A DNA stretch of 63,692 bases, the filler included, from an uncultured Gemmatimonadota bacterium (lineage in GTDB: Bacteria; Blakebacterota; Blakebacteria; Blakebacterales; Blakebacteraceae), in the NCBI GenBank assembly GCA_964576115.1. It is 12 parts of 12 records of this genome, joined end to end, with 100 filler letters (N's around TTAATTAATTAA, not from the genome) between each part and the next. Parts side by side here need not be neighbours in the genome. Positions count along the whole stretch, not along the records: positions 32,517 to 37,484 come from CAZNUA010000105.1; 11 more parts are not named here. One strand, given 5' to 3'. Under the pieces are notes generated by a model. That model was not told the DNA's origin, searched no databases, and worked only from the letters and a program-made list of their open reading frames with translations. How positions within the stretch are numbered: position 1 is the first letter of the stretch; each line of letters starts with the position of its first letter. Below are positions 20,519-59,427 of the stretch, piece after piece. The translations under genes were made by a program, and so were the position numbers.

Positions 20519-20672
20519 TATACATAATATATGATGTATACAAATCGCACGCAATGGACCTTCCTCCATCCCCCACCTCTACGCTGCCGGCGGATATCAC
20601 CGGCAGAGCGAGAATTCCCCGTAACCTTTTCCTCATATTCACGTTTTACATATAAGTACAATACATATATGT
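20519..20672. promoter_or_regulatory. AT-rich divergent promoter region with palindromes upstream of PadR
   Basis: TATACAT-N8-ATGTATA at 20519-40; ACATATAAGT (20648-57) and ACATATATGT (20663-72). A minus-strand AGGAG..ATG at 20475 marks a divergent gene lost at the contig edge. Confidence 0.55.
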
Positions 20673-20711
20673 CCCAGGATCAGCCTCCCTCCAGATGGAA
20701 GGTCGGATGTG

Positions 20712-21083
20712 ATGACGGACACGTCGCACCGCAGTCCGGGGAATTTCCTCCCTATGAGCCCCACCGATTTCCAGGTCCTGCTCGCCCTGGCTCGCGAGCC
20801 GCTGCACGGCTACGCCATCATGAAGGTCGTGGAGGAAACATCGGGCGGCCGCCTGAATATCGAGATTGGTTCTCTGTACCGGATCATCGCCCGGCTCTCG
20901 AGTTCGGGTCTGATCGAAGAGAACGGTGAATCCAATTCCGAGCCCCGGCCCGGTCGCAAGCGCCGCATCTATACGCTGACACCGCTGGGACGCGCTGTGG
21001 CCCGGGCCGAAGCCCGCCGGCTGAGCGATACCCTCGCACTGGCCCGATCCGAAAAGCTGCTCACCGATCCAGAGGCTCTGTGA
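20712..21083 (+). CDS. PadR-family transcriptional regulator
   Basis: LPMSPTDFQVLLALAREPLHGYAIMK..GSLYRIIARL..GLIEE..RRIYTLTPLGR. Confidence 0.93.
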   Translation: MTDTSHRSPGNFLPMSPTDFQVLLALAREPLHGYAIMKVVEETSGGRLNIEIGSLYRIIARLSSSGLIEENGESNSEPRPGRKRRIYTLTPLGRAVARAEARRLSDTLALARSEKLLTDPEAL

Positions 21084-23833
21084 TGAACGTGGACGCAGAT
21101 TCCCAGACGGTGACCGGATCGGGGGCAGATGGCATTCCGCTCGCCCTGCGCTTCTACCGTACCCTGCTCGGTCTCTATCCCCGGGATTTCCGGGAGGCCT
21201 ACGGCGCTGACATGTGCGCGGCTTTTCGGGACCGGTATGAGGACCGTCTTACCGGAGAGCAAGAAGGAGGGGGGGCTCGAATCCGAACGGCTCTGGTCAT
21301 GCTCTGCTCAGCCGGTTCCGACACGGTCCGCAACGCGATCTCCGAACGCCTGAACAGTTCGCTCAGACCGCCCGACGGCGGTCCGATCAAAGGCCGGGCC
21401 TCCCGGCCCTCCCGGGGCCGGTGGCTGACCTGGTTCGGGGAGGATCTGCGGCAGGCGCTGCGGAGAGCGCTCCGGCAGCCGGGCTTCACGCTGGTCGTGG
21501 CTTTGACTCTGGCCCTCGGGATCGGGGCCAATACGGCCCTGTTCAGCGTGCTGCACGGTGTTCTCCTCAGCCCCCTGCCCTACCCCGAACCTGATCAGAT
21601 CGTGCTCCTCTTCGAACGCGAAGTCGATCTCGGCTGGGAGCGCAACGCCTTCCCGCCGGGGAACATCCGGGCCTATCAGCAACAGAACACGACCTTCGAG
21701 ACGATCGGTGCGTATTTCAACACCTCCGCGACACTGACCGGTGACGGTGACCCGGAACGGGTGGCCGTACAGGGTGTGACGTCCGAGGTGCTGGCCGCCC
21801 TGCGGGTACGCCCCCATCTGGGCCGGCTGCTGCAGCCCGGTGATGAGGTGCCCGGTCATGATCGGGTGGTGGTGCTCAGTTACCGTTTCTGGCAGAACCG
21901 CTTCGGCGCCGATCCCGACGCGGTCGGGCGCAGCCTGATCGTGGATGGTCAGGCCCATACCGTGGTCGGAATCCTGCCCGAGGACTTTCGCTTCCCGAAT
22001 GGAGCCCCTGAACTCTGGTTGCCCCTGGCCCTGGGCGAAGCGGGCTGGGCGGAGCGGCGGAACCACTTCCTGTCGGGTATCGGGCGCCTGCGCTCCGGAG
22101 TCGGGATCGATGACGGGCTGGCGGATCTGACCGCGATCGCGCACCGGCGTGAAGAGGAGTATCCCAATACCAACCCGGGGAGTCTGGTGAATGTGTTCGG
22201 GCTGCGCGACGTCATGGTCGGCGACGTCGAACAGCCTCTTTGGCTGATGATGGCCGCCGCGGCCTTCGTCCTGCTGATCGCCTGCGCCAATGTGGCCAAT
22301 CTCTTCCTGGCCCGGGGGCTGGCCCGGGAACGTGAATTCGCCGTCCGGGGCGCCCTGGGCGCCGGCCGCCGGCGCCTGCTCCATCTGCTGACAACCGAGA
22401 GCCTGCTGCTGGCTGTGATCGGCGGGGCCGCGGGTATTTTCCTGGCCTGGCTGGGGCTTGAAACCGTGCGGGTACTCAATCCAGGGAACCTGCCGCGGAT
22501 CGAAACCATCGGCATCAACGGCCCGGTGCTCCTTTTCTGCGCTCTTGTCACCCTCCTGACCAGTCTGCTGTTCGGGATCGCCCCGGCTTTTCTGATCGCC
22601 CGTTCCAAACTGGTCAATTCGCTGCGGGCGGGCTCGGCCCGGCTGACCCAGAGCACCGCCTCACGACGGGCGAAGAACATCCTGGCTGTGATCCAGATAG
22701 CGGCCGCGGTCGTGCTCCTGGCCGGAGCCGGACTGCTGATCCGCAGCTTCGTCCGTCTGCAGCGGGTCGATCCCGGCTTTACGAGCGAGAGTGTGCTGCA
22801 GGCCACGATCTCTCTAGCGGGTGAGAGGTACCGGACCACAACCGCCGTTCACAACTTCCAGCAGGAACTGACGAACGGACTCGTGCGGGCACCGGCTATC
22901 GAGCAGGCGGGCGAGGTGTCGAACCCGCCCATGTCCATGGCTCCCCAGATATTTCTGCGTATCGAGGGTCGGGAGCCGGAGGGTGATCAGCCGCCCGTGG
23001 TCAGCCGTATTTACGCCTCCTCCAGGTACTTCGCAGTTCTCGACCTGACTCTTCTCGAGGGTCGTCTGTTCGATGACCTAGATCACATCGAAGCCCCCGG
23101 CGTGGTGGTCATCACGCAATCGATGGCCGAACGGCACTGGCCCGATGAGAGTCCTCTTGGTCGGATCGTTCGGATCGGTCCGCGTGAAACCCCGCCTCTG
23201 GAAGTGATCGGCGTGGTCTCCGACCTGCGCCAGTACGGCCTGCGCTACGGGGCTTTCCCCACCGCCTTCCTGTCCCTGTCTCAGGTTCGGATCAGCAGCT
23301 TCACCGTCATGATGAAGGTCAGCGTGGACCCGTCCGCAGCTCTCACCCATCTGCGCGCCACGGTACGGGATCTCGATCCCAACCTTCCTCTGACCGGCGT
23401 CAGCACCCTCGACGATGTCCTCTCGGCCAATGTCGCCCGGCCCCGCTTCACCATGTTCCTGGCCGCCGCCTTTGCGGCCGTGGCCCTGGTACTGGCGGTG
23501 GTGGGGATCTACAGCGTGCTGGCCTACGCCGTGTCCCAGCGCACCCACGAGCTGGGGATCCGCCTGGCCCTGGGCGCGGAGCGGGCCCGGATCATCTCGC
23601 TGGTGCTGCGCCAGGGGCTGGCGCTCACCGGTCTGTCTCTGGCGCTGGGACTGCCCCTGGCCTGGCTGTTCACCCGGACGATGGAGAGTCTGCTCTACCA
23701 GATCACGACCACCGATCCCGTCACCTTTGTTGGCCTGGCTCTCGTGATCGCGGTTTCCGCGCTGGCGGCCTGCCTGATACCGGCGGTCCGGGCGGCAGGA
23801 GTGAATCCGCTCGGGGCCATGCGGCAGGAGTAA
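21083..23833 (+). CDS. Duplicated orphan ABC permease (ADOP; 2x MacB_PCD + FtsX)
   Basis: PGFTLVVALTLALGIGANTALFSV, LLIACANVANL, REFAVRGALGAGR, RTHELGIRLALGA. TGATG coupling to PadR; no ATPase gene nearby. Confidence 0.95.
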   Translation: MNVDADSQTVTGSGADGIPLALRFYRTLLGLYPRDFREAYGADMCAAFRDRYEDRLTGEQEGGGARIRTALVMLCSAGSDTVRNAISERLNSSLRPPDGGPIKGRASRPSRGRWLTWFGEDLRQALRRALRQPGFTLVVALTLALGIGANTALFSVLHGVLLSPLPYPEPDQIVLLFEREVDLGWERNAFPPGNIRAYQQQNTTFETIGAYFNTSATLTGDGDPERVAVQGVTSEVLAALRVRPHLGRLLQPGDEVPGHDRVVVLSYRFWQNRFGADPDAVGRSLIVDGQAHTVVGILPEDFRFPNGAPELWLPLALGEAGWAERRNHFLSGIGRLRSGVGIDDGLADLTAIAHRREEEYPNTNPGSLVNVFGLRDVMVGDVEQPLWLMMAAAAFVLLIACANVANLFLARGLAREREFAVRGALGAGRRRLLHLLTTESLLLAVIGGAAGIFLAWLGLETVRVLNPGNLPRIETIGINGPVLLFCALVTLLTSLLFGIAPAFLIARSKLVNSLRAGSARLTQSTASRRAKNILAVIQIAAAVVLLAGAGLLIRSFVRLQRVDPGFTSESVLQATISLAGERYRTTTAVHNFQQELTNGLVRAPAIEQAGEVSNPPMSMAPQIFLRIEGREPEGDQPPVVSRIYASSRYFAVLDLTLLEGRLFDDLDHIEAPGVVVITQSMAERHWPDESPLGRIVRIGPRETPPLEVIGVVSDLRQYGLRYGAFPTAFLSLSQVRISSFTVMMKVSVDPSAALTHLRATVRDLDPNLPLTGVSTLDDVLSANVARPRFTMFLAAAFAAVALVLAVVGIYSVLAYAVSQRTHELGIRLALGAERARIISLVLRQGLALTGLSLALGLPLAWLFTRTMESLLYQITTTDPVTFVGLALVIAVSALAACLIPAVRAAGVNPLGAMRQE

Positions 23834-24022: not shown

Positions 24023-26427
24023 TTACTTGATATAGGTCAATTTCTTCGACAGCCGGTGCCGGCCGGCCTGGATCAGGTAGATATAGATCCCCGAAGCGAC
24101 CTGGCGACTGTCGTCGCTTTTGCCCTCCCAGGTGATACGGTGATAGCCCGGCTCCATCTGCTGATCAAGCAGGGTGGCCACCCGCTGACCGCGAACGTTG
24201 TAGATATACATCCGCACCCGCTGCCTGGTTGGGAGCTGGAAGCGGATCGTGGTCTGCCCGTTGAACGGATTGGGGTAGTTCTGCAGCAGGGCGAACTCAT
24301 CGGGGATACGGACAGCGGTGACATTCGTGGTATAGATCCCTGCAGTGAGTACCTCTGCCCGGCTGGTTCTGAGATCGTATTCGATGCTGACTTCTGAATT
24401 CTCGCGCGAGAGCTTCTCGAACTGCAGTGTCGCCAGCCGGCCCCCGCCCGATACGTCGGGCTCATCCGGATCGATCCGCCCGAACATGAGTTCGATCAGA
24501 CCGGCTTCTTCATCGACCCGTTCCACGAAGAGCAAGTTCGGATCGCTGCCCCCCGTTCGTCCCAGGAAGGTTCCTGGCTGAACATCACTGAAACTGAGGT
24601 GGCGGGTGTCATAGTGCAGCGTGATACCCGCCGAGATGAGCCCTGTCACATTGTGCGCTTCGAGATAGAGGTCCAGAAAACCGCTGTCGGGTGCCCAGAC
24701 ATCTTCCGGCTCGGGTTGTTCGAGCATAATCGGATGCTGACGCTGGAACTGAACGACACGAGTCTGATCGGGTTCGGCGACTGCGAACCGCCCGGATGAA
24801 ACAGCCGAGTTGGAACCTGCTGAAGCGAGATTGACAGTCGACCAGGTCCACATCTGCAGGTAGACCGTGAAATCCTCGAAGTCGATCTGACCGTCACACG
24901 TTGGCACGAGATCTGGCACCGTCCCCGTGGCCGGGCCGATGTCGCAGTAGGTATCCTGTTCGTTCCAGGCGGTGACCAGGGTAGCGAAATCGGCAAAATC
25001 AACACAGACATCCCCGGTGAAATCCCCGACGTAGTTTGCCACTGTGAAATATCCAGAGGTGACTGCACTTCCTGAATCGTGGTCTGCCGGCGTGAGTTTC
25101 ACCAGCATGCTGTCGGTCTTGCCATATCCGCAGTCATCGAAAGAACGCCAGAGCACCGAAGTGGAGTAGTCTGCCGGCAGCAGGTCACCGAACCCGCTAA
25201 GGAGCGTCATCTCCTGCCAGGTGATTCCCTTGTCGATCGACCACCAGCCGGCGATATCGACCGTATCGCTTTCGCTGTCTGAGATCTCACATGCCAGTGC
25301 GATATCACGGCCAACGACAGTTGTAGGTGACGTTAGAGACAACACCGGCGGTTCGTTGTTATCGATGTGCAGCACAAGGTGTTCGCCGAAACCGGTGTTG
25401 TACGGATCGCTCGGTGTGATGCGGAAGGTCACAACCTCGGCATCGACCCCTGCCAGGTCTGTGCCGGAATGCCAGGTTACGTTGCCGGTATACTCATCCG
25501 GCCCCGAAAGCGCGGCACTTCCCGTGACCGTGGCGGTGTGCCAGCTGCCGGCCGGATAGGCGTATTCGAAAACCAGATCAATCGGATCGGAGTTGATATC
25601 ATCCACGACATACTCTACTGACACATCGCCGCTCAGCTCATCTCCCGGTTCAGTCGTCACCTCGAGCGTCGGCACGCCCAGAGAGTTCACGAACACTGTT
25701 CGTTCAGCGGATGAGCCTTGATCATTGTCAGACGGTGTTATCCGAAAGAGGACTTCCTGGGTGGCATCCGGCAGGTCCCGACCGGCAAACCAGGTCAGGC
25801 TATCGTTATAGGCATCGGCACTGATACCCGCTGATGTCCCCTGGGTGTGTGCCGCGAGCCAGCTCGAACCGTCATCAATGCTGTATTCACCCTGAATCGC
25901 AAGCGTATCCGACTCAGGATCATCGAGCTGGTAGGCAAACCTCCAGGTCGTATCAGCTGGTGTATAGACAGTTTCCGAGATCGAGATAGAGGGAGGTGTA
26001 TTATTGTCGAGATGGAAAGTGATCTCATCGGCGTTGCCGATCTCGATATCATTGTCGATGACTGATATTCTGAACCTGACGTCAGCGAGATCGCAACCCG
26101 GCAGATCGCTTGCCGATTGCCAGAGAAGAGTCCCGGAGTACGAGTCGGCCTCGATCGCAGTCGTATCTGATGAGGTCGTCACGCTCTGCCACGATACGCC
26201 GTCATTGATTGAAAATGCCGGACTCAGATTACAGGGATCACTTTCCACATCGGTGATCGCGTATTCAATCGAAACGTTACCTGTAACTTCTTCACTGATA
26301 TCCGAGATCGAGATCTCAGGATTGCTGTTCGTATCCTCCGGCACGAAATCGACCGAGAGAGTTCCGGCTTCGTTGCCGTAGAGATCCTGGATACCGGTTG
26401 CTTGGAGAGTGATTGGCGCAAAGGGAA
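24023..26427 (-). CDS. C-terminal part of a giant secreted repeat protein: four beta-sandwich modules, dockerin-like, cohesin-like and T9SS/FlgD-Ig CTD
   Basis: Frame is open to the contig edge (PFAPITLQATGIQDLYGNE). Repeats of IEYxIxDxExD..SxDxGxxW..WxS..DL..FRITPxD. Dockerin-like GDFTGDVCVDFADFATL and DGQIDFEDF; cohesin-like LHYDTRHLSFSDVQPG..VSGGGRLATLQF; CTD LLQNYPNPFN..SGIYIY..KKLTYIK. Confidence 0.85.
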
Positions 26428-26595: not shown

Positions 26596-29315
26596 GTGGG
26601 CACCGAACCGCTCGAGATCATCGAGCGACGCGTTGCGACGCTCGCCAACCACCACCACAAATACCTCGTTACCATCCGCCGCTTCATCGACTCGCTGACC
26701 GAAACGCTCGAGACCTCGGGCAAGCTCATGCATGCTCACCTCTGGCGGTCGAGTTCCGATCCGGCCGATGAGATGCGGATTATCGCCGGTCTGACCGACG
26801 ATCCCGAGCTGAACGTGCATCACGTGAGCTGCTATTACGCCCTGCAGTTCCTGCACATGAACTTCCGGCACCAGGACATCCTCGCTCTCGGGATCTCCAG
26901 CCGGCAGACGCTGATCGATGTCTATCAGCAGTTCATGATGCAGATTGGAGCCGATTTCCGCACCCTGACCCGGGCTTACCTCGACACCCTGATCGATATC
27001 CACCTGCCCGGTGCGGATCGCGAGGCGTTCTTCATCTGCAGTGTGGGTACCAGGGCCGATCAGGACGACATCGATGTCGGGATCATCACCTCCGAACACA
27101 TCGACGACACCGCCCTGAACCTGGCCCTGAAGAACGTCACGCAGAACATGCTCGTCTATGCCACTCCCCTGCATCTCTATCTCTCCGAGCACGTGGGGCG
27201 GCAGATTTATACCACTACGATCCCCGAATACCACACCCTGCTCACCGAGCAGATCCAGGACGTCGTGATCATCTCCGAACTGCTCGGGGCCAGGCTCATC
27301 CTGGGCAGCGAGGATCTCTTTTCACGCTTTCAGGACGAGATCAGCACCCGCTATTTCTATCACCCCGACCGGGACATCCGCTATCACGAGGGCTTTCTGC
27401 GGGGCATTCTGGGCGAGGCTCGCGCCCTGCTCGTCACCCCCCTGGACACCGAAACCATTTCGCCCAAGGAAGATGCCCTGCGGATCATCAAGTCGGTCCT
27501 CTCGGCCCGCAAGGCGATCCACGGTCTGCCCGAGGTCAATGCCTGGGATATCATCAACGCTCTGATCGAGAAAGAACCCCACCTGCAGTCCGAGTACGAA
27601 CTGCTTTTCAAGGCCCTGACTTTCATCGAGCTGTTCAAGTTCCAGCTCCAGTTCTACATCGTGCAGGAGGATTCCTTCCGCACCGCCGAGATNNNNNNNN
27701 NNNNNNNNNNNNNNNNNNNNNNNNNNNNNNNNNNNNNNNNNNNNNNNNNNNNNNNNNNNNNNNNNNNNNNNNNNNNNNNNNNNNNNNNNNNNAACTGGGG
27801 CAGTGGGAGCAGGAGGACGTCATCGCCGAATACATGGAGTGGGCCCAGCACTCACCGATCACGATCATGCGGCTGATCACGATCATCAGCCAGCGTCTGG
27901 AAAACGAGCTCGGCGAGACGGTCGCCGACCGGATGAGCCGGGCCTTTCTGATCGAGATCGAAGGCCTGCCCTACATGACCGAGCGGTTGTGCAAGATCTT
28001 CAACCGCTATCCCGGCTACCTGCACGCTTTCCTGCAGTACCTGCCGACCCAGCACTTCAGTACGCTCTACCGCATTCTGTCCAAACCGGTCGTCGACGAC
28101 CGCTACGACAGTTTCCGGCTCCGTTTGCGCGAGCTCTGCCGGATCCACGAGTGGAGCAGCAAGTACTTCCACCGCTTCTTCTCCCGTGTCATCGCCCACC
28201 ATCCCGAGTACCTCGATTCCCTGTCGAGCCCGCACCAGCTCAACGAGATCGCCACCGGACAGATGGCCCTGGTCGATGTCCACCCCACCGCGACCGGCAA
28301 GAAAGAGGCTCTGGGCGACTACTACGATCTGGAGTTCGTGCGCATCGGTATCGGAACCATGCACGGCACCGATCTGCGGGTCACCAACCGCGAGTTCACT
28401 GCCTTCTGCGATGCCTATATCACCAAGCTCTTCGACGTCTGCACCGAAGAGGTGGAAAGTGAGCGCTCCGGCTCTGCGCCCGATACCGACAGCTTCGCCT
28501 TCACCGTGGCGGGGGGACACGCCCGGGAACAGGCCTACGACGACGACTGGGACCTGATTGCCATCGTCGACACCGATGACGAGGATGTTATCGCCCACGC
28601 CACCCGGATCGTCACCCGCATGAACCGGGAGATTCTGCGGCGCGGGCTGCTGCCCCACTACCGGCTCGGAGAGATCCTCGGCGGATTCGTCACTCCGCTG
28701 AACCGGCTCGAGGAGTACCTGGATTCAGGGGTCGAAGAGACATTCATCGATCTCTCCCAGCTCCTCGGCGCCCGCCTGCTGGTGGGTTCGGGGGTCATGC
28801 GCGCCCAACTCAACAGGCGCATCCTCGACCGTTTCGTCTTCGACCGCCGGGCCGAATACATCACCCGGATGATCGGCGAGATCAGGAACCGGCAGGATGT
28901 GGTGGAGGACTGCCGCACCGAGACGTGCAATCTGAAAGAAACCATCGGAGGTCTGCGCGATATCGAGGCGGTGGCGCTCATGCTCAAAGCCTGGCTCGGT
29001 ATCCATGCCCCCATCTCGCAGGACTTCTTCCACGAGATCCATCCGCAGGTCCCCGACGTGGCCGACGATCTCGATACCTTGAACCGCTCCCGCTACTATC
29101 TGCGTACGGTTCGAGATCTCTACCGCCTCACCGTGGCGGCCGAAGACAATATCAACCCCGATTACCTCGACCGGGTGGCGGCGATCTTCCAGGAGAGCAA
29201 CCGCCCCGAGTGGAGCAATCCCCAACTGATCATGGCCCAGCTCAGGACCACCCTGCTTCATTCGTCAGAGGCGATCGAGCGGGTGATCGGCTACCTGGAA
29301 ACCACGCTCGACTGA
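26596..29315 (+). CDS. Divergent GlnE/GlnD-like protein with two nucleotidyltransferase units, interrupted by a scaffold gap
   Basis: Unit 1: FFICSVGTRADQDDIDVGII..ELLGARLILG..ISPKEDALRIIK. Unit 2: FTVAGGHAREQAYDDDWDLIAIV..QLLGARLLVG..NLKETIGGLRDIE. Both frames are open up to the 27693-27792 gap. Confidence 0.78.
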
Positions 29316-32325: not shown

Positions 32326-32516
32326 CCGGGCGGGGGATGGCTGTCCTTTGTTTTTCCCCGCCAGGCTCTCTTTACCGTTTCTGGATGGCGTATCCGAAGA
32401 TCGTGGAAACACGGACNNNNNNNNNNNNNNNNNNNNNNNNNNNNNNNNNNNNNNNNNNNNTTAATTAATTAANNNNNNNNNNNNNNNNNNNNNNNNNNNN
32501 NNNNNNNNNNNNNNNN

Positions 32517-35500
32517 CCTCAGCGTCGAAAATGGTCCGATGGATGGTGAGATCGCCGCTGCGGGGACCGGCAGGCCCGTCGAGGCGGATCGACGGAGCCT
32601 GCCCCGAAGAGGGCGTGAAGGTGGAATCGAGCGAACCGGCCAGGGTGTTGCCGGCCCAATCGGTGATGTTTGACGCAGTCAGGGTGAGCGTATTCGGTGG
32701 AGGTGGCAGAACCTGACCGCTCGCAAGAGTCAGGTCGTATTTCCCCCGATCCAACCTGTCGAAGACCAGGTAATCGGTCCCCTGGTAGTTGATAAAACGG
32801 CCGTGATAGAACTGAGATCCGACCGCATCGCCCATGTAATCGGTGCGCTGCAGCGGCATGTCGGGCCCGGTGGACCAGCTGCCTGAATCCGGATCGTAGA
32901 TCTCGACCGTGGCGAGGGCACCGCTGGTATTGCCACCTCCCACGACGTAGAACTTGCCGTCAATGGCTCCGCCGACCGCGCAATCTCGCGGGGTCGGCAT
33001 CGAAGCCAGTGTGGTGGTGACACCTGTTGAGGGGTCGTAGGCCCTCAGGGCAGAGGAGTAGTTGTTGGCGCTGTCATCCCACCCCCCGGCGAAATAGAAC
33101 TGCCCGTCGATCACTGCCGTGGCGGGATTGCCCGTTCCCAGGCCGCCGGATTTACTGGTCCAGCTGTCGGTTTCCGGGTCGTAGATGAACATCGTGGCTG
33201 GATCGCTACCTCTCTCACACACGTACAGTCTATCGCCGATACCGCGAGCCTGAGCATCCCACGCGGCAGGATTGCATGGCGGCGAGCCCAGGGCGGTCCA
33301 GGTATCGGTTACAGAATCGTAGACCTCGAAGGCGTTCACGCGCCCGCCGGCGTTCTCACCCGAAAGCAGGTAGATCTTGCCGGCCACGGCGGCCGCTACC
33401 GCACTCGAGCGGGGTGAGAGCAGCGGCGCCAGGCTCGACCAGGAATCGCCGACCGGATCGTAGACCTCGAGTCGGTCCAGATGGTTGCTCCCGTCCCAGC
33501 CGCCGAGGACGTAGAGCCTGCCCCCCATGCCGACGACTGCAGCATCTCCGGCCGGTACGGTATCGAACGTGGCAGACCGTTCCCAGAGGTCATTGACGTC
33601 GATCGAAGCGATCGAGTACGGGCTGGAGAGCGAGAAGTTGCCGGTAGATGTGGCCGAGGCTTCAGTGACCGGTTCGTTGAACCAGAACGGGAAGGTTGAA
33701 TCCCCGCTGGCTCCCTCGGCCCCCATCCAGACCGGAGCCCGGTTGTCCAACTCGAAGATGACCACGTTGGGTGATCCCGGGGTCGTGGCGTTGTCGCTCG
33801 GAGTGATCCGGAACCGGAGCAGGTCCACGTCCTCATCGGACAGGTCGGTAGCCGAGTTCCAGACCAGCGAACCGGAATAGGCGGCGGGATAGATTCCCTC
33901 GGTCGTGCCGGTGACCGTGGCCGGTTGCCAGTTTGATCCGTGGTCGGTGGAGTATTCGGTGGTGAGCGAGACCGGGTTCCCCTCGGCATCGGTGATTTCG
34001 TAAGCCAGCGTGACATCGGCCCGCTGCACGGTGACCGGCCAGGTCACGTCGATCGCCGGCGGCTGACCGGTCTCGGGGTAGAAATCGTTCGACAGGGGCG
34101 AGGACAGGGTATTTCCCTGACGGTCGGTGATATTCGAGGCGGTGATCGTGACGGCGGTTTCGGCCGGCGGCAGGACCTCGCCGCTGCCCAGGGTGATATC
34201 GTACTCCCCCCGCCAGTCGTAGATGTCGAGAGCCGTGATGTACCCGCCGCAGTAACCGCTGGCGATGTAGAGCTGATTCCCGATGACGCCGGCGGTCGTC
34301 TTCCAGCGCTGGTTGGGGATGGTGCCGGCGGTCGACCAGCTGTCCGAAGCCGGATCGTAGACATAGACATCGCTGTTGAAATCGGTGCCGTCGAATCCCC
34401 CGACGACGATGAGCCGGCCCCAGGCCACCCCGGCGGCGGCATAGGCGATCGCCTTCGGCAGCGGGGCTTTTGTCGTCCAGGTATCGGTAACCGGATCGTA
34501 GACCTCGAGGTTGGCATAGTAGGTAGTGCCGTCGATCTCACCGCCGGCCACGTACATCCTGCCGTCGATCACACCGGAGACCGCCCCCCGCCGGGCGGTC
34601 GGCATGCCGGAGACATTCGTCCAGGTATCGGTATCGGGATTGTAGCGGTGGACCGCATGAGACTGGTCACTCCCGCCGGCTATGTAAATGTGGTCTCCGA
34701 TCGCCTCTATGGTTGCCCATGATTGATCGGCAAGGCCGTCACCGGACGGGTATGACCAGGAGTCGGTGGCTGGATCGTAGCGTTCGAAGGCGCTGCTGCA
34801 GACGTAGATGTCGTCATTGAGGACTGTCGCTCGGGCGCCATCCCGCCACTGATTACTGTCCTCTCCCTGAGCCCAGGTGTCGGTAGCGGGATCGTAGATC
34901 CGGACTTCGTGACCGGCCTGGTTCCCGCCGATCACGTACAGCGTGTCGTTGAGTACGGCTGAGGCCGAGCCGGAGCGCCCCGGATCGGGCAGGGGCTGCC
35001 CGCTCGACCAGTTCCGGACGCTGATATCGCTGACCGTCAGGCCCGAGAGAGAGATGTTCCCGGTGTTCGTGGCGGTCGCATCCTCGACGGGCTCGTCGAA
35101 GTGGAAGGTGACGGTGTCGTAACCGCTCAGACCGGTGGCTGTGATCGAGGCCGGGGGACTGTTGTCGAGCCCGAAGATGATCGTGGCCGAGGATCCGTGA
35201 TGGGTGGGACCGTCGTAGGGAGTGACACGGAACAGCACTTCATTAACATGCTGACCCGGCAGATCGGACTGTGACTGCCAGGTGAGGGTGTCGGGGTAGG
35301 ACTCCTTGAAGAGATTATTCACTCCCTCGAGGATCGACGCGGTGAACCAGCTGCCGCCGGCGTCGGCAGAATACTCGCAGACCAGGGTGACCGGGTTGCC
35401 GTCGTGGTCGGTGACGCGGACAGCAATTGGAATGTCGCCGGTGCGGGTGCCGGTCAGCGGGGTCAGGAAGACCCGGGGCGGTGTTCCCGGCTCGGGTTCG

Positions 35501-37008
35501 ACGATCGCCTGCAGGGAAGAGGAGTTGATATTGCCATGGCGATCGGATATCCCGGTCGCGGTGACCGTGATGTCGGTATCGGCAACGAAGGATTGTCCGC
35601 CGGAGAGAGTGAGTTCATATCCCTGGCTGCACCCAATGCTGTGAAGGTCAAGCCGGTCCAGGTATCCGCCGTTGTTTCCGCCGACCAGATAGACCTGACC
35701 GCGAATCAGCCCGGCGGTGGCGGCGTACCGCGCCATCAGCAGATCCTGGCCGAATATGATCCAGGTATCAGTACCGATATCATACGTATAGCTCAGGTTC
35801 GAGAGGCCCGCGCCGGTATCACCGCCCATGACATCGAAAACCATCCCCCTCATCACCCCGGCGGCGTGGCTGATTGCCGCCGGCATGACGGACCCGGTGC
35901 TCCAGCTGTCAGTTACGGGATCGTATATCTCCAGGGTGTTCGATTTATCCCAGCTGCCCTCGTTTTCACCCCCGGCCACATAGAGTTTGCCATCGGCGAC
36001 CCCGTAGGCCGTATACCAGCGAGGCGTCGACATGGCTGTCCTGGTAACGGTCGTTTTGCTGACAGGGTCATATTCGTAGGTGTGATAGTCCTCGGCGAAG
36101 TAGATCTTGTCGCCGATGACACCTCCGGCGCCATAGTGAAAAGACGACCCGAAATTGAGATCGGTCCAGATATCGGTCCGAGGATCGTAGACCTCGAAAC
36201 CGGCTCCGCCACCCACCACATACAGCAGTCCTTTCAGGACGACCGCGACCGCCCCATTGCGAGCGTGATTGAGACTGGCCCTGGCGGTCCAGGCGCCGGT
36301 GTCGGGATCGTAGACTTCGAGGGTATTCTGGCCGCCGTTGCCGCCGATGACATACAACCGGCCGTCGAGCACGGCCGCAGCGGCATACTCCCGGGCGGTC
36401 GGCATCGAGGGCCCCTGGACCCAGTGATCTCTTTCCACGATCGTATCGATGGTCAGACCGCCCGAGAGGCCGATATTGCTCGGATCGAGGGCGGTGGAAT
36501 CGGCCTGCTCATCGAAGACATAGAACAAGGTCTTGTCGCCGCTGGCGGCCCAGGCATTGATCGATTCGGGCGGCTTGTTGTCGAGCGGGAAGGTGATCTG
36601 CCCGGCCGTACCCCAGCCGGAGTCATCGTGGGGAGTGATACGAACCCAGATCACCTCGAAAGCCTGACCGTCCAGATCGCTCTTCGAATTCCAGACCAGG
36701 CTCGAATCGTATCCGGCCGGTTTGATATCGGCGGTGTCGCCGGTGACCGTCGCAGGCAGCCAGGTGGTGCCGGAATCGGTGGAATATTCGACCAGCAGGC
36801 CGACCGAGTCGCTGTCGGCATCCTCGATCAGGTACTCGATGGTGATATCCCCGCTCTGGGTTTCCGAGAGGGGGGTCAGCGTAACCAGGGGGGGCTGCTG
36901 GGCGCGGACCGTCTGGGCCGTCAGGGTGATCAGAAAGCCGACGCATAGACCAATAAATAAAAAGTGCTGAAGTACAAACCCGCGACGTGCGCGGCGGGAG
37001 CTGGTCAT
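32517..37008 (-). CDS. N-terminal part of a giant secreted Kelch/Ig super-repeat protein (3 full units plus start of a 4th)
   Basis: AAGGA RBS and signal peptide ending VRA-QQ. Eighteen Kelch blades (LYVIGG..EVYDPxTxxW..MPTAR). Units start at 36891, 35478, 34059 and 32595; the frame is open at the contig edge. Confidence 0.9.
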
Positions 37009-37020
37009 TTGTATCCTTCC

Positions 37021-37119
37021 GTGCCGATGGTCCCCGAGGCGGGGACAGCAAACCGTCGGCACCCGGTTGCTGCAGTGTTCTTTCTCCAGCATCCCTGCCA
37101 GATCAGCGGCGGGGATGCT
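37021..37119 (-). promoter_or_regulatory. Two strong hairpins in the intercistronic leader of the Kelch gene
   Basis: AGCATCCC..GGGATGCT (37088-37119) and GTGCCGA..GTCCCCG-N3-CGGGGAC..TCGGCAC (37021-37062); the second ends just before the RBS. Confidence 0.5.
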
Positions 37120-37224
37120 CACTCACGCCCCTCCCGTCAGGCGAAGTCGCTTCCGAGGTGTCCTTCTCGCTCTGTCTGTCTGCGCTCTCCCCTCGCGATC
37201 ACACTGTGACCGGAGCCGTTGCGA

Positions 37225-37484
37225 TCACTTGATGATCGTCATCTTCTTCGAGGCCCGGTGCGGACCAGCCTGGATCAGGTAGATGTAAATTCCTGAAGCC
37301 ACCCGCCGGCCGTCATCGGAGCGCCCGTCCCAGCGGATGGTATGGTACCCGGGCTCATACTCGCGATCGGCCAGGGTGGCCACCCGCTGACCCCGTACGT
37401 TGAGCACGTAGAAGCGCACCCGCTGCGCGGTGGGCAGCTGGAAGCGGATCACCGTCTCGGCGTTGAAGGGGTTGGGGTAGTTGG
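37225..37484 (-). CDS. C-terminal T9SS/FlgD-Ig sorting domain of an upstream secreted protein (fragment)
   Basis: NYPNPFNAETVIRFQLP..NVRGQRVATL..WDGRSDDGRRVASGIYIY..KKMTIIK*. By manual count 64/85 residues are identical to the CTD at 24023. Confidence 0.88.
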
Positions 37485-47305: not shown

Positions 47306-50300
47306 ATGAGAATGACGACCCGTTCCACCGCCATCGTTCGCAGCTCTTCATCGATTCACCGCACCGGCGGTCCCGCCCGGTTCCGGCACAGTTTGCGCCG
47401 ACCCCCGGGATCTCACCGTCGGTCGGGTGCGCTGCCGGCCCTTCTCGCGCTCGCCCTGGTGCTCGTTCCCATCCGGGCCGCAGCCCAGAGTCCTCCCTCG
47501 ATCCATCTCTACCAGCCCACCGGAGTGCAGCAGGGCTATGTCACCATCGAGTACCTGATCTCGGATACCGATTCGAGCGCGGTGGGCCTGCTGGTCGAGG
47601 GGTCGGGCGATTACGGTGTCACCTGGCAGCCGCTGACCTTCACCGGGGATACTTCGGCCATCGCCCCGGCCGATTACGCCGGCAGTATCGTCTGGAACTC
47701 GCTCGCCGACCTGCCCGATGATGAAGCCGAGGATCTGTATTTCCGCATCACCCCCTACGACGCCGGGGGCTGGGGCATCCCCGACACGACCTACGGCGAT
47801 GTCGACAACCGCTACCCGCAGTGGGTCGCAGCTGCGGGAGTCCGGGGCGATTCCAGTTTCACCTTCTGGTTCAACGAACCCGTGGCCGACTCCTCGCTCA
47901 CCAAGACCTGGAACGTCGCACTCTCCACCGCCGCCACCATCGATTCGGTCACCTCCGAGGGGACCTGGAGCGAGGCCGATTCGCTTGCGACCGCCCGGTG
48001 GAACTCAGCCACCGGGGTCATCGACGAAAAAATCTACGTCGCCGGGGGCTACTACGGTTCTGATTCAAACGCTCTCGAAGCCTACGAACCGCTGACCGAC
48101 ACCTGGTCGACCCTGGCTTCGATGACCTATAACCGCCGCGGAGCGGTCGCGGGCGCGATCGACGAGTATCTCTACGTGGCGGGTGGATACCAGCTCGCCA
48201 TGGGGGGACTGGCCTCGGTCGAGATCTATAATGCCATGACCGATACCTGGAGCGCGGGCACGTCCCTTCCAGCTGTCAGGTCTGAAGCGGCCGGCGATGT
48301 GATCGGCGGCCGGCTCTACCTGGTCGGCGGCACCGACGGCGCCACCTACAAGACCGATCTCTACGTCTACGACCCCGGCCTCGATACCTGGAGCACGCTC
48401 CAGGCGGCCACCATCACCCGCGGCGAGGCGGGCGCCGCTGTCATCGACGAAAAACTCTATGTCGCCGGGGGCTGGGACGGGTCGGTCCCCCTCGCGGACG
48501 TCGAAGTCTACGACCCGGCCACCGACATCTGGACCCTCCTGCCCGACATGCCCACCGCACGCCGCCACCCCGAGTGCGCCGCAGTGGGCGGCAAGCTCTA
48601 CATCTTCGGCGGCTACGGTACCACCGGCTACCTCGATGCGGTCGAGGTCTACGATCCGGCCGCCGGAATCTGGTCGATCCCGGCCACGATGCCGATCACG
48701 CGCCGCGGCCCCTTTGTCGAAGAGATCGAAGGTCTGCTCTACGTCGGGGCCGGCTATGACGGCAGCCGCACCTCGCCGACCATGGACATCTTCGATCCGC
48801 AGACCCGCCTGCGCGCTCACATGGCCAGCGGCGAGAGCCTGCCCTCGAGTACGGTCGGGCTCGATGTGTATGAGATGGACGATTATCGAGGGAACACCCT
48901 CAGCTGGGCCGACACGACCTTCACGCCAAGCCCGAACCCGGCTTACCGCCCTACCGTCCACGTTTATCAGCCCGCCAGCATCGTGAGCGGCAGCGTGACG
49001 ATCGAGTACGCGATCTCCGATCCCGACCTGAGTTCGGTCGGCCTGCTGGTCGAAGGTAAGGAAGACATTTACGCCGACTGGACTCCCCTGACCGTCATCG
49101 GCGACACCTCCGCCATCGCCCCGGCCGATTACGACTCGAGCCTGGTCTGGGATTCGGACACCGATGCCGGCGGCGAGGAGCACCTCTACGGCATGTTCCG
49201 GATCACCCCGTATGACGAGATCGGGTGGGGTGAGCCCGACACCACGTATTTCGGTGTCGACAACGCCGTACCGATGTGGATCCAGGCTGAAGGGATCGAG
49301 GGCGATTCGGTCGTCACCTTCTGGTTCAACGAACTGGTAGCCGACACGACGGCGACGAATACGGCCAATATCTCCCTCTCGGGCGGGTACACGATCGACA
49401 GTGTCTCGGTCTACGACAGCTGGTCGACCGACGTGGACAGCCTGGCCACCGGCCGCAACTGGGCGGGCTCGGCCACCATCGGCGAGAAACTCTACGTCGT
49501 CGGCGGCCATGACGGCGGGTACTTCGCCACTCTGCAGGTCTTCGACCGCACAACTGGTGCCTGGACCACCCTGAGCCCGATGCCCACCGCCCGGCGGGCT
49601 CCGGTCGTGGGGGCCATTGACAACAAGCTCTACGTGGTCGGAGGCTATAACGGTTCCTACCTGCCCACGCTCGAGATCTACGACACGGACACCGATACCT
49701 GGTCGACCGGACCGTCGATGCTGACTGCCCGCGGGAGAGCGGCCGGCGGGGTCATCAACGGGCGTCTCTACGTCGTCGGCGGCTATGACGGTTCCTACCT
49801 GGGACTCAACGAGTGTTATGATCCAGCTACCGGCAGCTGGTCGACGAAAACCTCGATCCCGACCCTGATCTCCGAGATGGCTGCGGGGGTGATCAACGGC
49901 AAGCTCTATATCGCCGGCGGCTGGAACGGATCTTTGGTTCAGGACTGTCGTGTCTACAATCCGGAGAGCGACAGCTGGTCGCTGCTCCCGAACCTGCCGG
50001 CAGCGCGGCGCGACGCCCGCGGTGGAGTAATCGGAGGCAGGTTCTACGTAGCCGGCGGTAACAATGTCGGGTTCATCGACACCCTCGAGGTCTACGACCC
50101 GATCGCCGGTACGTGGACGGGACTGACTTCGCCCCCCGTACAACTGGTCGCCCCGACCGTGAGCGTGCTGGACGACACCCTCTACACCATCGGCGGGCAC
50201 GACAACACCAGCTTCCGCGGCCTGGTGATGACGTACACCCCGCAGGACTGCTTCGACGCCCATCTCACCAGCGGCCAGACCCTGCCGGCCGAGGGGACCT

Positions 50301-51550
50301 CGCTGACCATCACCGCCACCGGCATCCCCGACGAGCACGGGAACACCGCCACATCGCTTCAGGACAATTTCCTCACCGATGCCGGCGCCCCCTCGCCCTA
50401 CCAGCCCGACGTCTCGGTCTGCACTCCGTCGGGCACCGAGAGCGGGGACATCATCATGGCTTACCGGATCACCGATACCGACTCGAGTCTGGTTGGTCTG
50501 ATAGCCGAGTACTCGATCGACGGGGGGAGCAGCTGGTCGGCAGCCACGGTATCCGGCGACACATCGGATATCTCCAAGGGCTCATACGACTCCTTCGTGC
50601 TCTGGCACTCGGACTCCGATCTGGCCGATCAGACCTTCTATAACATGCTCTTCAGAATGATCCCGTACGATTCCGGCGGGGAGGGAACACCCGGTCAGGT
50701 ATACCTCAACCTCGACAACACCGATCCCGCCTCGGTCGCGGCTTCGGGGTACAGCGGCTACAACACCCTGCGCTTCTCTTTCAACGAGGCGGTGGCCGAA
50801 TCGAGCGCCACCAATGACGGCAACTTCACCCTGAGCGGCGGCCTGACCCCCGACAGCATCGCCGTCGTGCACGAGATCGACGAAGCCGCGGTCACGGTGC
50901 CGGCCTTCAAGAAGGATGCCGGAGTGGGGGCGGTGAACGGTCTGCTCTATGTCGTGAGCGGAACCCTAACCAATACCTCGGGCTACACCAACACGGTCGA
51001 GGTCTACGACCCTGCCACCAACACCTGGGACACCGCGGCCCCCATCCCCACCGCCCGCCGCAACCCTCTGGTGTTGGGTTTCAACGGCAAACTGTATGTC
51101 GCCGGGGGCGAGGATGGTTCAGGCGGGGTGGCCGTGCTCGAAATCTACGACCCTGCCACCGACTCCTGGAGCACCAGCGGATCAGCCTGCCCCGTCGATC
51201 ACACCACCATCTACTTCAGCGGCGCCGCGACAGGCGACGCCTGGTACGTCAACGAGTGGAACGGCTCCAACGCGTATATCCACAAGTATGATCCGTTCAA
51301 GGATTCCTGGACCACCCTGTCCGTCGGCAAACCCGCCTACCGGGTCTCGACCGCCTATGTCAACGGCAAGATCTACCTGGCCGGGGGGTACTCGGGGACA
51401 GTGAGGTCGGACTGCCTGGTCTTCGATCCGGGTACCGAACTGATCGGCCCGGTGGCAGGGATGAGCCTGCCCCGCTACGATGCCAATGTCGGCGTCATCG
51501 ACGGTCACATGTGGGCCGTCTCGGGCTACAATACCACCACGATCGACGTC
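47306..51550 (+). CDS. N-terminal part of a second giant secreted Kelch/Ig super-repeat protein
   Basis: GAGGAG RBS; signal ending RAAA-QS. Units start at 47495, 48950 and 50405 (1455-nt period), each with six Kelch blades; the third is cut at the contig edge. Confidence 0.9.
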
Positions 51551-53270: not shown

Positions 53271-53370
53271 NNNNNNNNNNNNNNNNNNNNNNNNNNNNNN
53301 NNNNNNNNNNNNNNNNNNNNNNNNNNNNNNNNNNNNNNNNNNNNNNNNNNNNNNNNNNNNNNNNNNNNNN

Positions 53371-56700: not shown

Positions 56701-59427
56701 CTATTCCTGCCGCAGGACCTCCATCGGATCGGTCGTGGTCGCCTTCCGGGCAGGCAGGTAGGAAGCGGTCAGCGCCACGGCTGTCATGATCAGGGAGACC
56801 AGCACGAATGTCACCGGGTCGGTCACTGTAATGCCGAAGACCATGCTTTCGAGAAAATCAGTGAGAAACCAGGCGCCGGCTGCTCCGACGAGCACTCCGA
56901 TGACGGTGATTATCAAAGTCCGTTTCTGGACCAGGCGGATCAACCGGGAACGATCGGCCCCCAGGGCGGTCCGGATACCCAGTTCGCGCCGCTGTCGCCC
57001 GACACTGTAGAGCACGGCGGCATAGACTCCCCCGGCCGACAGCAGCAGAGCGGTGATGGCGAAGGTGAGGAAGAGGGTCGAGAAGAATCTGGGAACGGCC
57101 AGTGATTCCGCGATCTGATCTTCCAGGAGATAGATGTTATCCAACGGCATATCGGGATCTTCCGACCAGATCGTTTCCCGGATGGCGTCGATCACTGCCG
57201 CTGGATTTCCGTTGACCTTAATCAGCAGTGAGGCGAGCGGATTTTCCGGGCCGTACTGCTCCCAGAGGGGGAAAACGGTCTTTTCGGAACTCTGATCGAG
57301 ACCCCAGCCGTGCAGTCCCGACACAATGCCGATGATCCTGAGTTCGGTCTCGGGCACATCCTGTCGCCAATCACATCCCCAGATGGTCTGCCCCAGGGCA
57401 TCCCGCCCCGGGCAGATCTCGGCGGCGAACGTTTCGGACACGATGACCGGGACCGGCCAGGCGGTCTTATCACCGGGTTGAAAAGTGCGTCCCCGCAGGT
57501 CGGCGCCCAGGAGCGTGAAATAGTCCGCAGTGGCCGGATGCACCATGGTCCAGATCTCGCGGTCCTCGCGCTCGGGTGTCTTCCAGTCCCACCTCAGCCA
57601 GCCCCTCCGCCGCCTGCCCCAACTCTGGAAGGGGACGGTGATGCCGGTCGCGACCCCGGCAATCTCCGGCAGGCTCTCAAGTCGCTGGTCGAGTCTCTGG
57701 ACCAGCTCCAGGCGTCTCTCGGGGGGATAGGCCAGCCCGTTGATATTCAGCTCGACCCCGACCAGGCCATCAGGATCAAAACCGGGATGTACGGCCTGCA
57801 GACGCAGGAAACTGTTGAAGAGCAGGCCGGCCCCGGTGAGCAGGATGAGGGCCAGGGCGATCTCGGCTCCGACCAGGAGCGTGCGCAGGCGGTCGCGATC
57901 TTTCGTTGAACCGGTGCGCAGGCTGTCGTTCATCATGCCGGAGATATCGAGTCGGGCGGCCCGGAGAGCCGGCACGAGCCCGAAGAGCAGACCTGTTACG
58001 AGCGAGATCGCGAGCGCAAAGAGCAGAACCCGCCAGTCGACGGCGATCCGTTCGATGAGAGGGATGTTGCCGGGGTTGAGGATTTCGAAGGCCCGCACGC
58101 CGGCAAACGCAAGGATGACCCCGAAGATCCCCCCGCACAGAGCGAGGGTAGCGCTTTCGGTGAGCAGCTGGGCAGCGATCCGTCCGCGTGACGCTCCCAT
58201 GGCCGCCCGAACTCCGACCTCGCCGATCCGGTCGAGTCCCCGGGCCAGGAAGATGTTGGCAATGTTGGCGGCCGCGATCCCGAGCAGCAGGATGACCGCA
58301 CCCAACAGAAGAAGTAGGGCGGTGCGGGTATCACCCGTCATGGCGACCTGCAGGCTCGACAGCGTGACGTAGCGGGGACCGTCCTCGGGATCTGCATGCA
58401 CGGCTGGTTTTTCTACCGCCAGAACATCGATGATGCGATTGAGTTCGATCTGGGCGGCCGGAATCGTCAGTTCCGGCTTGATCCTGCCATAGACCGCCAG
58501 AATGAGGACGCCGGGATCCCAGAGCGCCCCCCAGCGGGGATCCATGGCCAGCCACACATCTGTTTCCCTGCCGGTCAATCCCTGGGGTGAAGTGAATGAG
58601 GGATCGAGGACTCCCACAATCTCCCGGTCGATACCGTTAAGGGTGATCACGTGACCGATGATGTCGGGATCGGATCCGAACAATCGTTGCCAGGTACCGT
58701 ATCCCAGGACCGCCCGGGTCGGCGGACCGGCGAAATCTTCCGGCAGGAAAAGGCGTCCCAGGGCAGTCCGGGCGCCGAAGATCTCGAAGAAATCGGGGGT
58801 CATGAGACCGGCCGATAACTCGGCCGGTCGATCGCCGCCGATACAGACGATCTCGTTCGTCCACACTCCCGCCAGATACTCGAACGACGTACTCTGTTCT
58901 TTCCAGTCCACGAAGCGGGGTGGGGAGAAGGCCGGATTCTGGAAGAACGCGATCCGCTCAGGTTCATCGTACGGAAGTTGTTTGAGCAGAACCGCGTCCA
59001 CGACGCTGAAGATCGTGGTGGTCGCTCCGATTCCCAGACCGAGGATCAGGACCGTGGTGATCCAGAAGACCGGCTGGGTTCGCACGCTCCGGAAAGTGTG
59101 GCGGACATCCTGCAGCAGGTCGGCCAGCACCGAGGCGATTCGGCCTCGCCGGCGGAGTTTCTCTTCTGAGGCTTCCATCATGACGTCTGCCACAGGGCGC
59201 CGGTTGGAGTGCTCGGCCCGGCTCAGCAGGCGGGAGAACAACTCCCAGTCGGGTACCTGGGAGCGGGTCCATTCCTCGGCTTCTTCCGGCGGGAGACCCC
59301 GTTCCAGGGCTTCGCTGTAGATGTCCTCGAGCTGCAGGGCCAGCTCTTCGGCGATGCGCTCTTCTCTCAAGCCCTCGAGGTCGTTCAGGGTGAGATTGGC
59401 GAGGATGAACTCTTTCCAGTCAGGCAT
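56701..59427 (-). CDS. Duplicated orphan ABC permease (ADOP) with prefix-domain-1-like N-terminus
   Basis: EERIAEELALQLEDIYSEALERGLPPEEA; LGLGIGATTTIFSVV; IAAANIANI; ELGIRTALGA; DPMEVLRQE. Confidence 0.95.
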   Translation of the reverse strand: MPDWKEFILANLTLNDLEGLREERIAEELALQLEDIYSEALERGLPPEEAEEWTRSQVPDWELFSRLLSRAEHSNRRPVADVMMEASEEKLRRRGRIASVLADLLQDVRHTFRSVRTQPVFWITTVLILGLGIGATTTIFSVVDAVLLKQLPYDEPERIAFFQNPAFSPPRFVDWKEQSTSFEYLAGVWTNEIVCIGGDRPAELSAGLMTPDFFEIFGARTALGRLFLPEDFAGPPTRAVLGYGTWQRLFGSDPDIIGHVITLNGIDREIVGVLDPSFTSPQGLTGRETDVWLAMDPRWGALWDPGVLILAVYGRIKPELTIPAAQIELNRIIDVLAVEKPAVHADPEDGPRYVTLSSLQVAMTGDTRTALLLLLGAVILLLGIAAANIANIFLARGLDRIGEVGVRAAMGASRGRIAAQLLTESATLALCGGIFGVILAFAGVRAFEILNPGNIPLIERIAVDWRVLLFALAISLVTGLLFGLVPALRAARLDISGMMNDSLRTGSTKDRDRLRTLLVGAEIALALILLTGAGLLFNSFLRLQAVHPGFDPDGLVGVELNINGLAYPPERRLELVQRLDQRLESLPEIAGVATGITVPFQSWGRRRRGWLRWDWKTPEREDREIWTMVHPATADYFTLLGADLRGRTFQPGDKTAWPVPVIVSETFAAEICPGRDALGQTIWGCDWRQDVPETELRIIGIVSGLHGWGLDQSSEKTVFPLWEQYGPENPLASLLIKVNGNPAAVIDAIRETIWSEDPDMPLDNIYLLEDQIAESLAVPRFFSTLFLTFAITALLLSAGGVYAAVLYSVGRQRRELGIRTALGADRSRLIRLVQKRTLIITVIGVLVGAAGAWFLTDFLESMVFGITVTDPVTFVLVSLIMTAVALTASYLPARKATTTDPMEVLRQE

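Follow-up and report, generated by a model that had tools for sequence, protein, structure and literature searches.

Kelch propellers nested in split Ig-like domains: the repeat unit of a giant secreted protein from an uncultured Gemmatimonadota bacterium

The stretch of DNA analysed here (63,692 nucleotides (nt), hereafter the window) comes from an uncultured Gemmatimonadota bacterium (assembly GCA_964576115.1) and holds, on its minus strand, part of a large gene, gene A, whose product is built of tandem units. In a Pfam scan of this product the Kelch repeats are unmistakable (Kelch_1 at 356.7 bits against a gathering threshold of 20.1, in 12 stretches over three units), and the sequences flanking them contain nothing above Pfam thresholds. 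An earlier note, made from the sequence, had claimed that these flanks are the two halves of one immunoglobulin (Ig)-like domain, split by a whole Kelch propeller and repeated as part of a unit of ~480 amino acids (aa). The analysis agrees with this: the propeller takes the place of a hairpin turn in an Ig-like domain of the SbsC type. We consider it probable, at roughly 70%, that gene A represents the 5′ portion of the gene for a giant, secreted surface protein, sorted by a T9SS (type IX secretion system), which forms a rod with Kelch heads and serves as a multivalent adhesin or capture scaffold.

Numbered along P0001, the translated open reading frame (ORF) of gene A, unit 1 spans residues 77-547 (471 aa, 1413 nt), unit 2 residues 548-1020 (473 aa, 1419 nt) and unit 3 residues 1021-1508 (488 aa, 1464 nt); boundaries and periods are exactly those of the earlier note, and the motifs it quoted are each present once per unit. 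Pairwise, the units are 35-41% identical over 456-466 aligned positions. Each is composed of a ~104-aa Asp-box β-sandwich (the beta module), the first ~51 aa of an Ig-like domain (the N-half), a Kelch propeller, and the last ~48 aa of that same Ig-like domain (the C-half), as follows:

32517..37008, minus strand: gene A, partial coding sequence, comprising a signal peptide and three complete units, with a fourth just begun; 3′ end lost at the contig end
36901..37008, minus strand: predicted signal peptide of the general secretory (Sec) pathway, P0001 residues 39-74, with a basic stretch, a hydrophobic core and VRA before QQ
36586..36894, minus strand: unit 1, Asp-box β-sandwich module, residues 77-179
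36433..36585, minus strand: unit 1, N-half of the split Ig-like host domain, residues 180-230
35623..36432, minus strand: unit 1, six-bladed Kelch propeller (the guest), residues 231-500
35482..35622, minus strand: unit 1, C-half of the split Ig-like host domain, residues 501-547
35170..35481, minus strand: unit 2, Asp-box β-sandwich module, residues 548-651
35017..35169, minus strand: unit 2, N-half of the host Ig, residues 652-702, with model strands 113-118, 123-128, 143-145 and 150-155
34207..35016, minus strand: unit 2, six-bladed Kelch propeller, residues 703-972, model range ~155-427
34063..34206, minus strand: unit 2, C-half of the host Ig, residues 973-1020, with model strands 426-431, 444-448 and 463-467
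33751..34062, minus strand: unit 3, Asp-box β-sandwich module, residues 1021-1124
33595..33750, minus strand: unit 3, N-half of the host Ig, residues 1125-1176
32743..33594, minus strand: unit 3, Kelch propeller, residues 1177-1460
32599..32742, minus strand: unit 3, C-half of the host Ig, residues 1461-1508, holding the only Pfam Big_5 stretch of gene A
32517..32598, minus strand: beginning (27 aa) of a fourth beta module, truncated where the contig ends

The contig of gene A occupies 32517-37484, where a single minus-strand frame (32461..37122) is open throughout; the 3′ end of the ORF runs into a contig joint, so that it is the contig end, and not a stop codon, that terminates the gene at 32517. 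Its start is likely the ATG at 37008, which has GGAAGGA five bases upstream and is followed by a signal-peptide-like N-terminus. The window as a whole is a chain of short contigs, with eleven joints of the form N44-TTAATTAATTAA-N44 between 7183 and 60016 and two further runs of 100 N at 27693-27792 and 53271-53370. The joints are artificial; neighbouring contigs are thus uninformative on gene order, and the adjacency of genes across a joint is an artefact.

For comparison, unit 2 was searched with phmmer against 1.84 billion representative sequences, which returned 71,155 matches at E≤0.001, mostly to Kelch; the best 150 of these, together with P0001-P0006, a paralogue in the window (gene B) and the 3′ end of a further family gene (fragment C), form the set of 158 proteins used in the following. 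Full-length units were found by a hidden Markov model of the unit in 14 of the 158, and gene B matches the units of gene A by tblastn with E-values of 1e-48 to 1e-85, which together place the units far beyond chance.

The nature of the flanks follows most directly from these relatives. When the Kelch columns were cut from an alignment of 17 units (A1) and the remaining flanks joined into one profile, six proteins of the set were matched end to end without interruption. Five of these matches are real domains of ~100 aa, in which the host is unsplit (P0047, residues 794-896, at 112.7 bits; P0142, P0100, P0094 and P0146); the sixth, P0008 1156-1253, is spurious, being an N-half plus the start of a Kelch region. 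Separate profiles for the four parts of the unit, run on the same 158 proteins, gave 70 pairs of N-half and C-half, and the gaps between the halves fall into three discrete size classes: 269-293 aa in 60 pairs from 21 proteins, where the gap holds Kelch; 150-156 aa in four pairs (P0002, P0003, P0005 and P0006), where it holds PA14 (Pfam PA14 lies in the gap of P0002 and P0005, the two that were scanned); and 7-27 aa in six pairs from five proteins, where it is empty. Two proteins, P0047 and P0159, combine within a single chain a host domain filled with Kelch and another that is unsplit, and P0158 is a headless stalk, with the structure (b-NC)x2, four beta modules, a cohesin and a sorting domain (b denotes the beta module, N and C the host halves and, below, K the Kelch propeller). 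The contiguous homologues, the gap classes and these three proteins identify the flanks as the two halves of one domain family, which occurs empty, with PA14, or with Kelch.

In the four PA14-class proteins the insert sits at the same host hairpin (for example, P0005 583-825) and is followed by 6-10 beta modules. A separate case is P0073, in which residues 23-193 form a DUF1080/3-keto-disaccharide-hydrolase (ConA-like) domain directly before a C-half; no N-half is visible in the cluster of this protein, where all gene calls begin within the DUF1080 domain. This may be a third type of guest with a broken or miscalled 5′ end, or else a counter-example. One member of the cluster is named Candidatus Latescibacterota.

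The structure predictions lead to the same topology. AlphaFold2 models were obtained for unit 2 with alignment A1 (predicted local distance difference test (pLDDT) score 92.1, predicted template modelling (pTM) score 0.85) and for the beta module plus unsplit host of P0047 (pLDDT 96.2, pTM 0.82), and the order of host strands is equal in both: strands 113-118 and 123-128, a short helix 134-137, strand 143-145, a hairpin, and two further strands. In unsplit P0047 the hairpin consists of 151-156, a turn at 157-160, and 161-166. In the unit 2 model its first strand extends as 150-160 and the return strand is 419-431, both of them bridging Ig domain and propeller. Between residues 156 and 425 of this predicted model, DSSP assigns six groups of four strands, in line with the six Kelch blades per unit claimed previously, and the fourth strand of blade 6 is supplied by the N-terminal strand 156-160. 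The hairpin strands are thus continuous with strands of the propeller, which replaces the hairpin turn without a linker.

Modelled as two separate chains, the flanks associated with an ipSAE (interaction score from predicted aligned errors) of 0.57, against 0.00 for the best of three controls; at least 97% of the contacts agree between runs and partner pLDDT is at least 81. The mark used for this test is reached by 58 of 80 solved complexes and by 2 of 110 mismatched pairs; among those at the mark, scores of 0.60 or less were obtained by just seven of the 80 solved complexes and by both of the passing mismatches, so the value counts as weak support. Taken with the contiguous homologues as prior, the modelled association is consistent with one split domain. 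The flanks were accordingly not found to fold as independent domains, the outcome that the earlier note had named as speaking against its proposal; contiguous homologues, common strand order, the fold match described next and the weak pass of the separate-chain test all favour a Kelch propeller inside a split Ig domain.

As to the identity of the host, the unsplit domain superimposes on the Ig domains of SbsC (2ra1_A and 4uj6_A) with Z 13.7 and a root-mean-square deviation (rmsd) of 1.6 over 93-94 residues at 20% identity, followed by structures with Z 10.1, 9.5 and 9.2. The best Pfam family of the unsplit P0047 host is Big_5 (PF13205), at 21.6 bits over profile positions 15-104 of 105; in gene A the same family scores 21.1 bits at residues 1478-1503 (profile positions 80-104 of 105), the gathering cut-off being 23.6. 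The proposal of an SbsA/Big_5-type Ig thus holds for the fold, as judged by SbsC, and falls short for the Pfam family. As a lead only, Big_5 is found in 93-100% of the members of the ESM Atlas clusters nearest to the host.

The guest (unit 2 model 155-400) matches the Kelch domain of Keap1 (6fmp_A) with Z 34.7 and rmsd 1.3 over 243 residues; further matches are the six-bladed Kelch domains of KLHL17, KLHL12 and NS1-BP (TMt 0.86-0.89). Two enzyme families tried as identities for the guest were rejected: the NCBIfam models for the mutarotase NanM/YjhT reach 31-46 bits in the three units against cut-offs of 243-416, and that for the radical copper oxidase GlxA reaches 32.8 against 800. No solved chain covers the whole unit: Foldseek and VIA-align return only propellers for it, with a best query-normalised TM of 0.53. 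For the two-domain P0047 model, Foldseek against the PDB gives uninformative two-domain matches with low TM values of 0.29-0.41, mostly to antibody Fabs.

The third component, the Asp-box beta module, is an uncurated domain. It carries an Asp-box-like motif and gives weak matches to BNR and Reelin-subrepeat in Pfam scans, yielded no Pfam family when scanned as an isolated module, and returned generic sandwiches only (Z ≤9.0) in structural comparison; the Atlas clusters nearest to it are without any family assignment. These clusters are labelled Planctomycetota and Fermentibacterota. Beta modules also occur in tandem arrays of 4-16 copies in unnamed giant proteins (P0020, P0023, P0032 and others).

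Variation within the Kelch heads is confined to particular loops. In the Kelch alignment, the B-C loops (which follow the GG doublet) and the D-A loops (between blades) contain all 40 inserted columns and the columns of highest entropy; no insertions or deletions occur in the A-B turns or in the P-x-T-D C-D turns, which are conserved. The strand arriving from the Ig domain enters the propeller on the face of the C-D turns; by topology, the variable face is thus the side far from the stalk. Kelch domains of the Keap1 type have a ligand site made up of the D-A and B-C loops, on the side opposite to the chain termini. Between units, mean identity is 33% for Kelch and 41-47% for the parts of the stalk.

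The far end of such proteins is known from relatives. Fragment C, a 3′ end on a third contig, has a T9SS type A sorting domain (TIGR04183 at 29.9 against a cut-off of 23; Pfam Por_Secre_tail, PF18962, at 31.5 against 27); it could be the end of gene A or of gene B. Another sorting domain of this type, 75% identical to that of fragment C, closes a same-strand gene that lies directly upstream of gene A; this suggests tandem paralogues as in metagenome locus L002. The remaining parts of the family in the window are the following:

47306..51550, plus strand: gene B, paralogue with an N-terminus of its own and two complete units; the contig end cuts its third unit within Kelch
24023..26427, minus strand: fragment C, 3′ end of a family gene, a C-half followed by four beta modules
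24845-25024, minus strand: dockerin-like stretch of fragment C (NF041540, 27.8 against a cut-off of 29)
24401-24655, minus strand: cohesin of fragment C (Pfam, 25.1 against 24.1)
24038-24277, minus strand: T9SS type A sorting domain of fragment C
37228..37482, minus strand: last 85 aa of the gene upstream of gene A, a T9SS-type C-terminal sorting domain

With gene A as query, neither a scan of genome contigs nor a scan of metagenomes returned a relative; with P0009 as query, the metagenome scan returned 12 loci, L001-L012. Complete relatives follow the plan signal peptide, (bNKC)2-8, bbbb, cohesin and T9SS sorting domain; among the metagenomic ones, which read (bNKC)2-8 bbbb, the sorting domain is seen in L001, the one scanned at its C-terminus. 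L001 encodes a gene product of 4215 aa with the structure (bNKC)x7-bbbb, whose C-terminal 900 aa end in this domain (28.2 against a cut-off of 27); in L002 three paralogues adjoin, the first with at least six units, the next with eight and the last with two; and P0007 has eight units. The family extends to proteins in databases: MFC1628283.1, MFC1529303.1, MFC1530263.1 and others, all named 'Kelch repeat-containing protein [Gemmatimonadota bacterium]', have the same unit and the same architecture, with up to 62% identity to unit 2 (P0011). Of 20 unit-bearing proteins looked up, seven have a taxon label, six being Gemmatimonadota and one 'archaeon'; in the window itself, NCBIfam scans of 20 other ORFs yielded no phylogenetic marker. 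The relatives' names are automatic ('Kelch repeat-containing protein', 'hypothetical protein' or, from the Joint Genome Institute (JGI), 'N-acetylneuraminic acid mutarotase'), and none of the names returned mentions a split host domain or a repeat unit. In P0105 Kelch-bearing units are fused to a subtilase, and in P0159 to a metallophosphoesterase (calcineurin-like) plus He_PIG/Big_9 domains; such fusions fit a targeting or binding role of the heads.

With the domain anatomy, the insertion, the host fold and the architecture of complete relatives established, a model of the complete protein can be proposed. The chain would be exported by the Sec pathway and then sorted and anchored to the outer membrane by a T9SS-like route, via its C-terminal sorting domain. 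Its body would be a rod standing off the cell, in which the Asp-box module alternates with the SbsC/Big_5-like Ig domain. In each Ig domain the turn of one β-hairpin is replaced by a complete six-bladed Kelch propeller, whose first and last strands are direct continuations of the two hairpin strands and close blade 6; without a linker, the head would be held rigidly at the side of the rod. The propeller would be attached by the face of its conserved turns, such that the B-C and D-A loops, rich in insertions and deletions, are directed away from the stalk. The 2-8 diverged Kelch heads of a chain may then act as ligand-binding modules for particles, polymers or other cells; a function of the gene A product as adhesin or capture scaffold is plausible on these grounds.

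Several observations weigh against parts of this model. For the way the halves pack and for the lateral placing of the heads the basis is DSSP strings, pTM and homology, to which the separate-chain fold added weak support. The Big_5 cut-off is reached neither by gene A nor by unsplit P0047, and the isolated host halves give no Big_5 match in Pfam scans. The Sec signal peptide was judged by eye from the sequence, and a sorting domain of gene A, whose own 3′ end is lost, is presumed from fragment C and the relatives. Finally, the Kelch heads are just modestly more divergent than the stalk.

The lack of Big_5 matches in lone flanks and the weak separate-chain result are also what could be cited for an alternative in which the two flanks are small modules independent of each other, or belong to the propeller as extensions, instead of making up one split domain. 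We regard this as scarcely tenable, as contiguous homologues span both flanks end to end, the gap sizes are discrete, and the strand order is identical in split and unsplit models. That the Kelch propellers form an array of enzymes, for example sialic-acid mutarotases or radical copper oxidases, is quite improbable as well: such an activity is suggested by the JGI name on P0008, P0022 and P0055, by a Pfam NANM match of 85.1 bits against a cut-off of 45, and by the match of YjhT (2uvk_B) to the unit 2 model with Z 32.6, but the best NANM stretch spans just profile positions 36-127 of 350, the binding propellers of Keap1 and the KLHL proteins match equally well or better, and the loop face varies between units, unlike a conserved active site.

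Somewhat less unlikely, though still doubtful, is a structural role, in which the protein is a scaffold of a surface layer (S-layer) or matrix and the Kelch heads serve for self-association or for lattice contacts among copies or paralogues. Its grounds are that the best structural match of the host Ig is an S-layer protein, SbsC, that paralogues adjoin (the three in L002, and the sorting-domain gene directly upstream of gene A), and that the sorting domain is preceded by connectors between proteins, namely dockerin-like and cohesin modules. However, the heads are the most divergent part of the chain and vary on their distal loop face, which fits diversified recognition better than a lattice contact; moreover, relatives fuse units to enzymes, and a headless stalk exists in P0158. 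The multivalent adhesin or capture scaffold thus remains the preferred reading of gene A. A more general idea, which goes beyond gene A and which we put forward tentatively, as somewhat short of an even chance, is that the hairpin of the SbsC-like Ig domain is a reusable socket, which takes Kelch, PA14, possibly DUF1080, or nothing, and which is iterated up to eight times to give a combinatorial array of heads.

The principle of display has precedents. In RTX (repeats-in-toxin) adhesins, such as MpIBP, FrhA of Vibrio cholerae and AhLap of Aeromonas, ligand-binding domains bud from split Ig-like domains, according to PMC10865825 and PMC12077191. The latter describes how projection from split domains was used to pick out the ligand-binding domains of AhLap, with a crystal structure of one pair (9CSE), and cites Graham et al. 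2024 (Proteins 92:933) as a survey of the split-domain principle. The similarity is in layout: in both cases an Ig-like domain of the stalk is interrupted by a whole guest, with its termini together, so that the guest projects laterally from a long multi-domain surface protein; MpIBP has PA14 as guest of a split Ig, as do the relatives P0002 and P0005 here; and the binding site is argued, in PMC10865825 and PMC12077191, to lie on the face farthest from the junction, which matches the distal position of the variable loops here.

The differences are equally clear. RTX adhesins are substrates of type I secretion (T1SS) that contain RTX repeats and Ca-dependent BIg extenders and, close to the C-terminus, one to three differing heads; the gene A family has T9SS type A sorting, an SbsC/Big_5-like host, a Kelch guest, and a split unit iterated 2-8 times, and no HemolysinCabind/RTX family is among the Pfam matches of gene A (partial), fragment C and the C-terminal 900 aa of the L001 giant. 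The family works like the split-domain RTX adhesins without being a member of theirs, and is likened to them by architecture. The view that the architecture has no known parallel must therefore be narrowed: the principle is in print for RTX adhesins, and what is new relative to them is the Kelch head, the SbsC-like host domain and the number of repeats. The literature searches made here returned no paper with a Kelch domain in a split Ig-like domain, nor one with Kelch together with T9SS or Gemmatimonadota, although Graham et al. 2024 or its supplements might list propeller guests.

With SbsC (2ra1, 4uj6) the gene A product shares the fold of the host domain; unlike in SbsC, no S-layer anchoring domain was found in its partial coding sequence. 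The guest is like the Kelch domains of Keap1 and the KLHL proteins (6fmp, 6hrl, 2vpj, 5yy8; Z 33.7-34.7, rmsd 1.3-1.5), but these are C-terminal domains of intracellular eukaryotic ubiquitin-ligase adaptors, whereas the guest is bacterial, extracellular and nested in another domain.

Split-domain display, so far a matter of T1SS-dependent RTX adhesins of Proteobacteria, is hereby extended to T9SS-type giants of a poorly studied phylum, and a β-propeller of ~280 aa is seen to nest in an Ig hairpin without linkers, up to eight times per chain. The empty, PA14-filled and Kelch-filled versions of one host offer a natural system for the origin of domain insertions, and the same series is a template for the engineering of rigid multivalent display scaffolds. 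For annotation, the automatic names 'mutarotase' and 'Kelch repeat protein' are corrected for a family of very large environmental proteins, and an uncurated family of ~100-aa Asp-box sandwiches is flagged. Should the idea of a socket be true, it would be convergent with the split domains of RTX adhesins and more extreme, providing Gemmatimonadota-type T9SS giants, with their neighbouring paralogues, with the means for recognition of particles, polymers or other cells.

Some further genes were noted. In L001 (7280-9869, plus strand) and L002 (28925-31322, minus strand) a gene pair lies directly upstream of the giants, the first gene encoding a PEGA/CsgG/LpoB-like protein and the second a ~300-aa protein without family. 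The ~300-aa proteins of the two loci are 35% identical (E 2e-40); the second gene's product has a lipoprotein-like N-terminus and a stretch that is cohesin-like by eye, and may be an anchoring or assembly partner of the giants. In the window, the ORF at 56701-59427 (minus strand) encodes a duplicated permease of the ADOP family (TIGR03434, 759 bits); a scan of genome contigs with an ADOP permease returned no relative. The ORF at 21080-23833 (plus strand) resembles a second ADOP permease by eye, and the one upstream of it, at 20625-21083, likewise resembles a PadR-type regulator.

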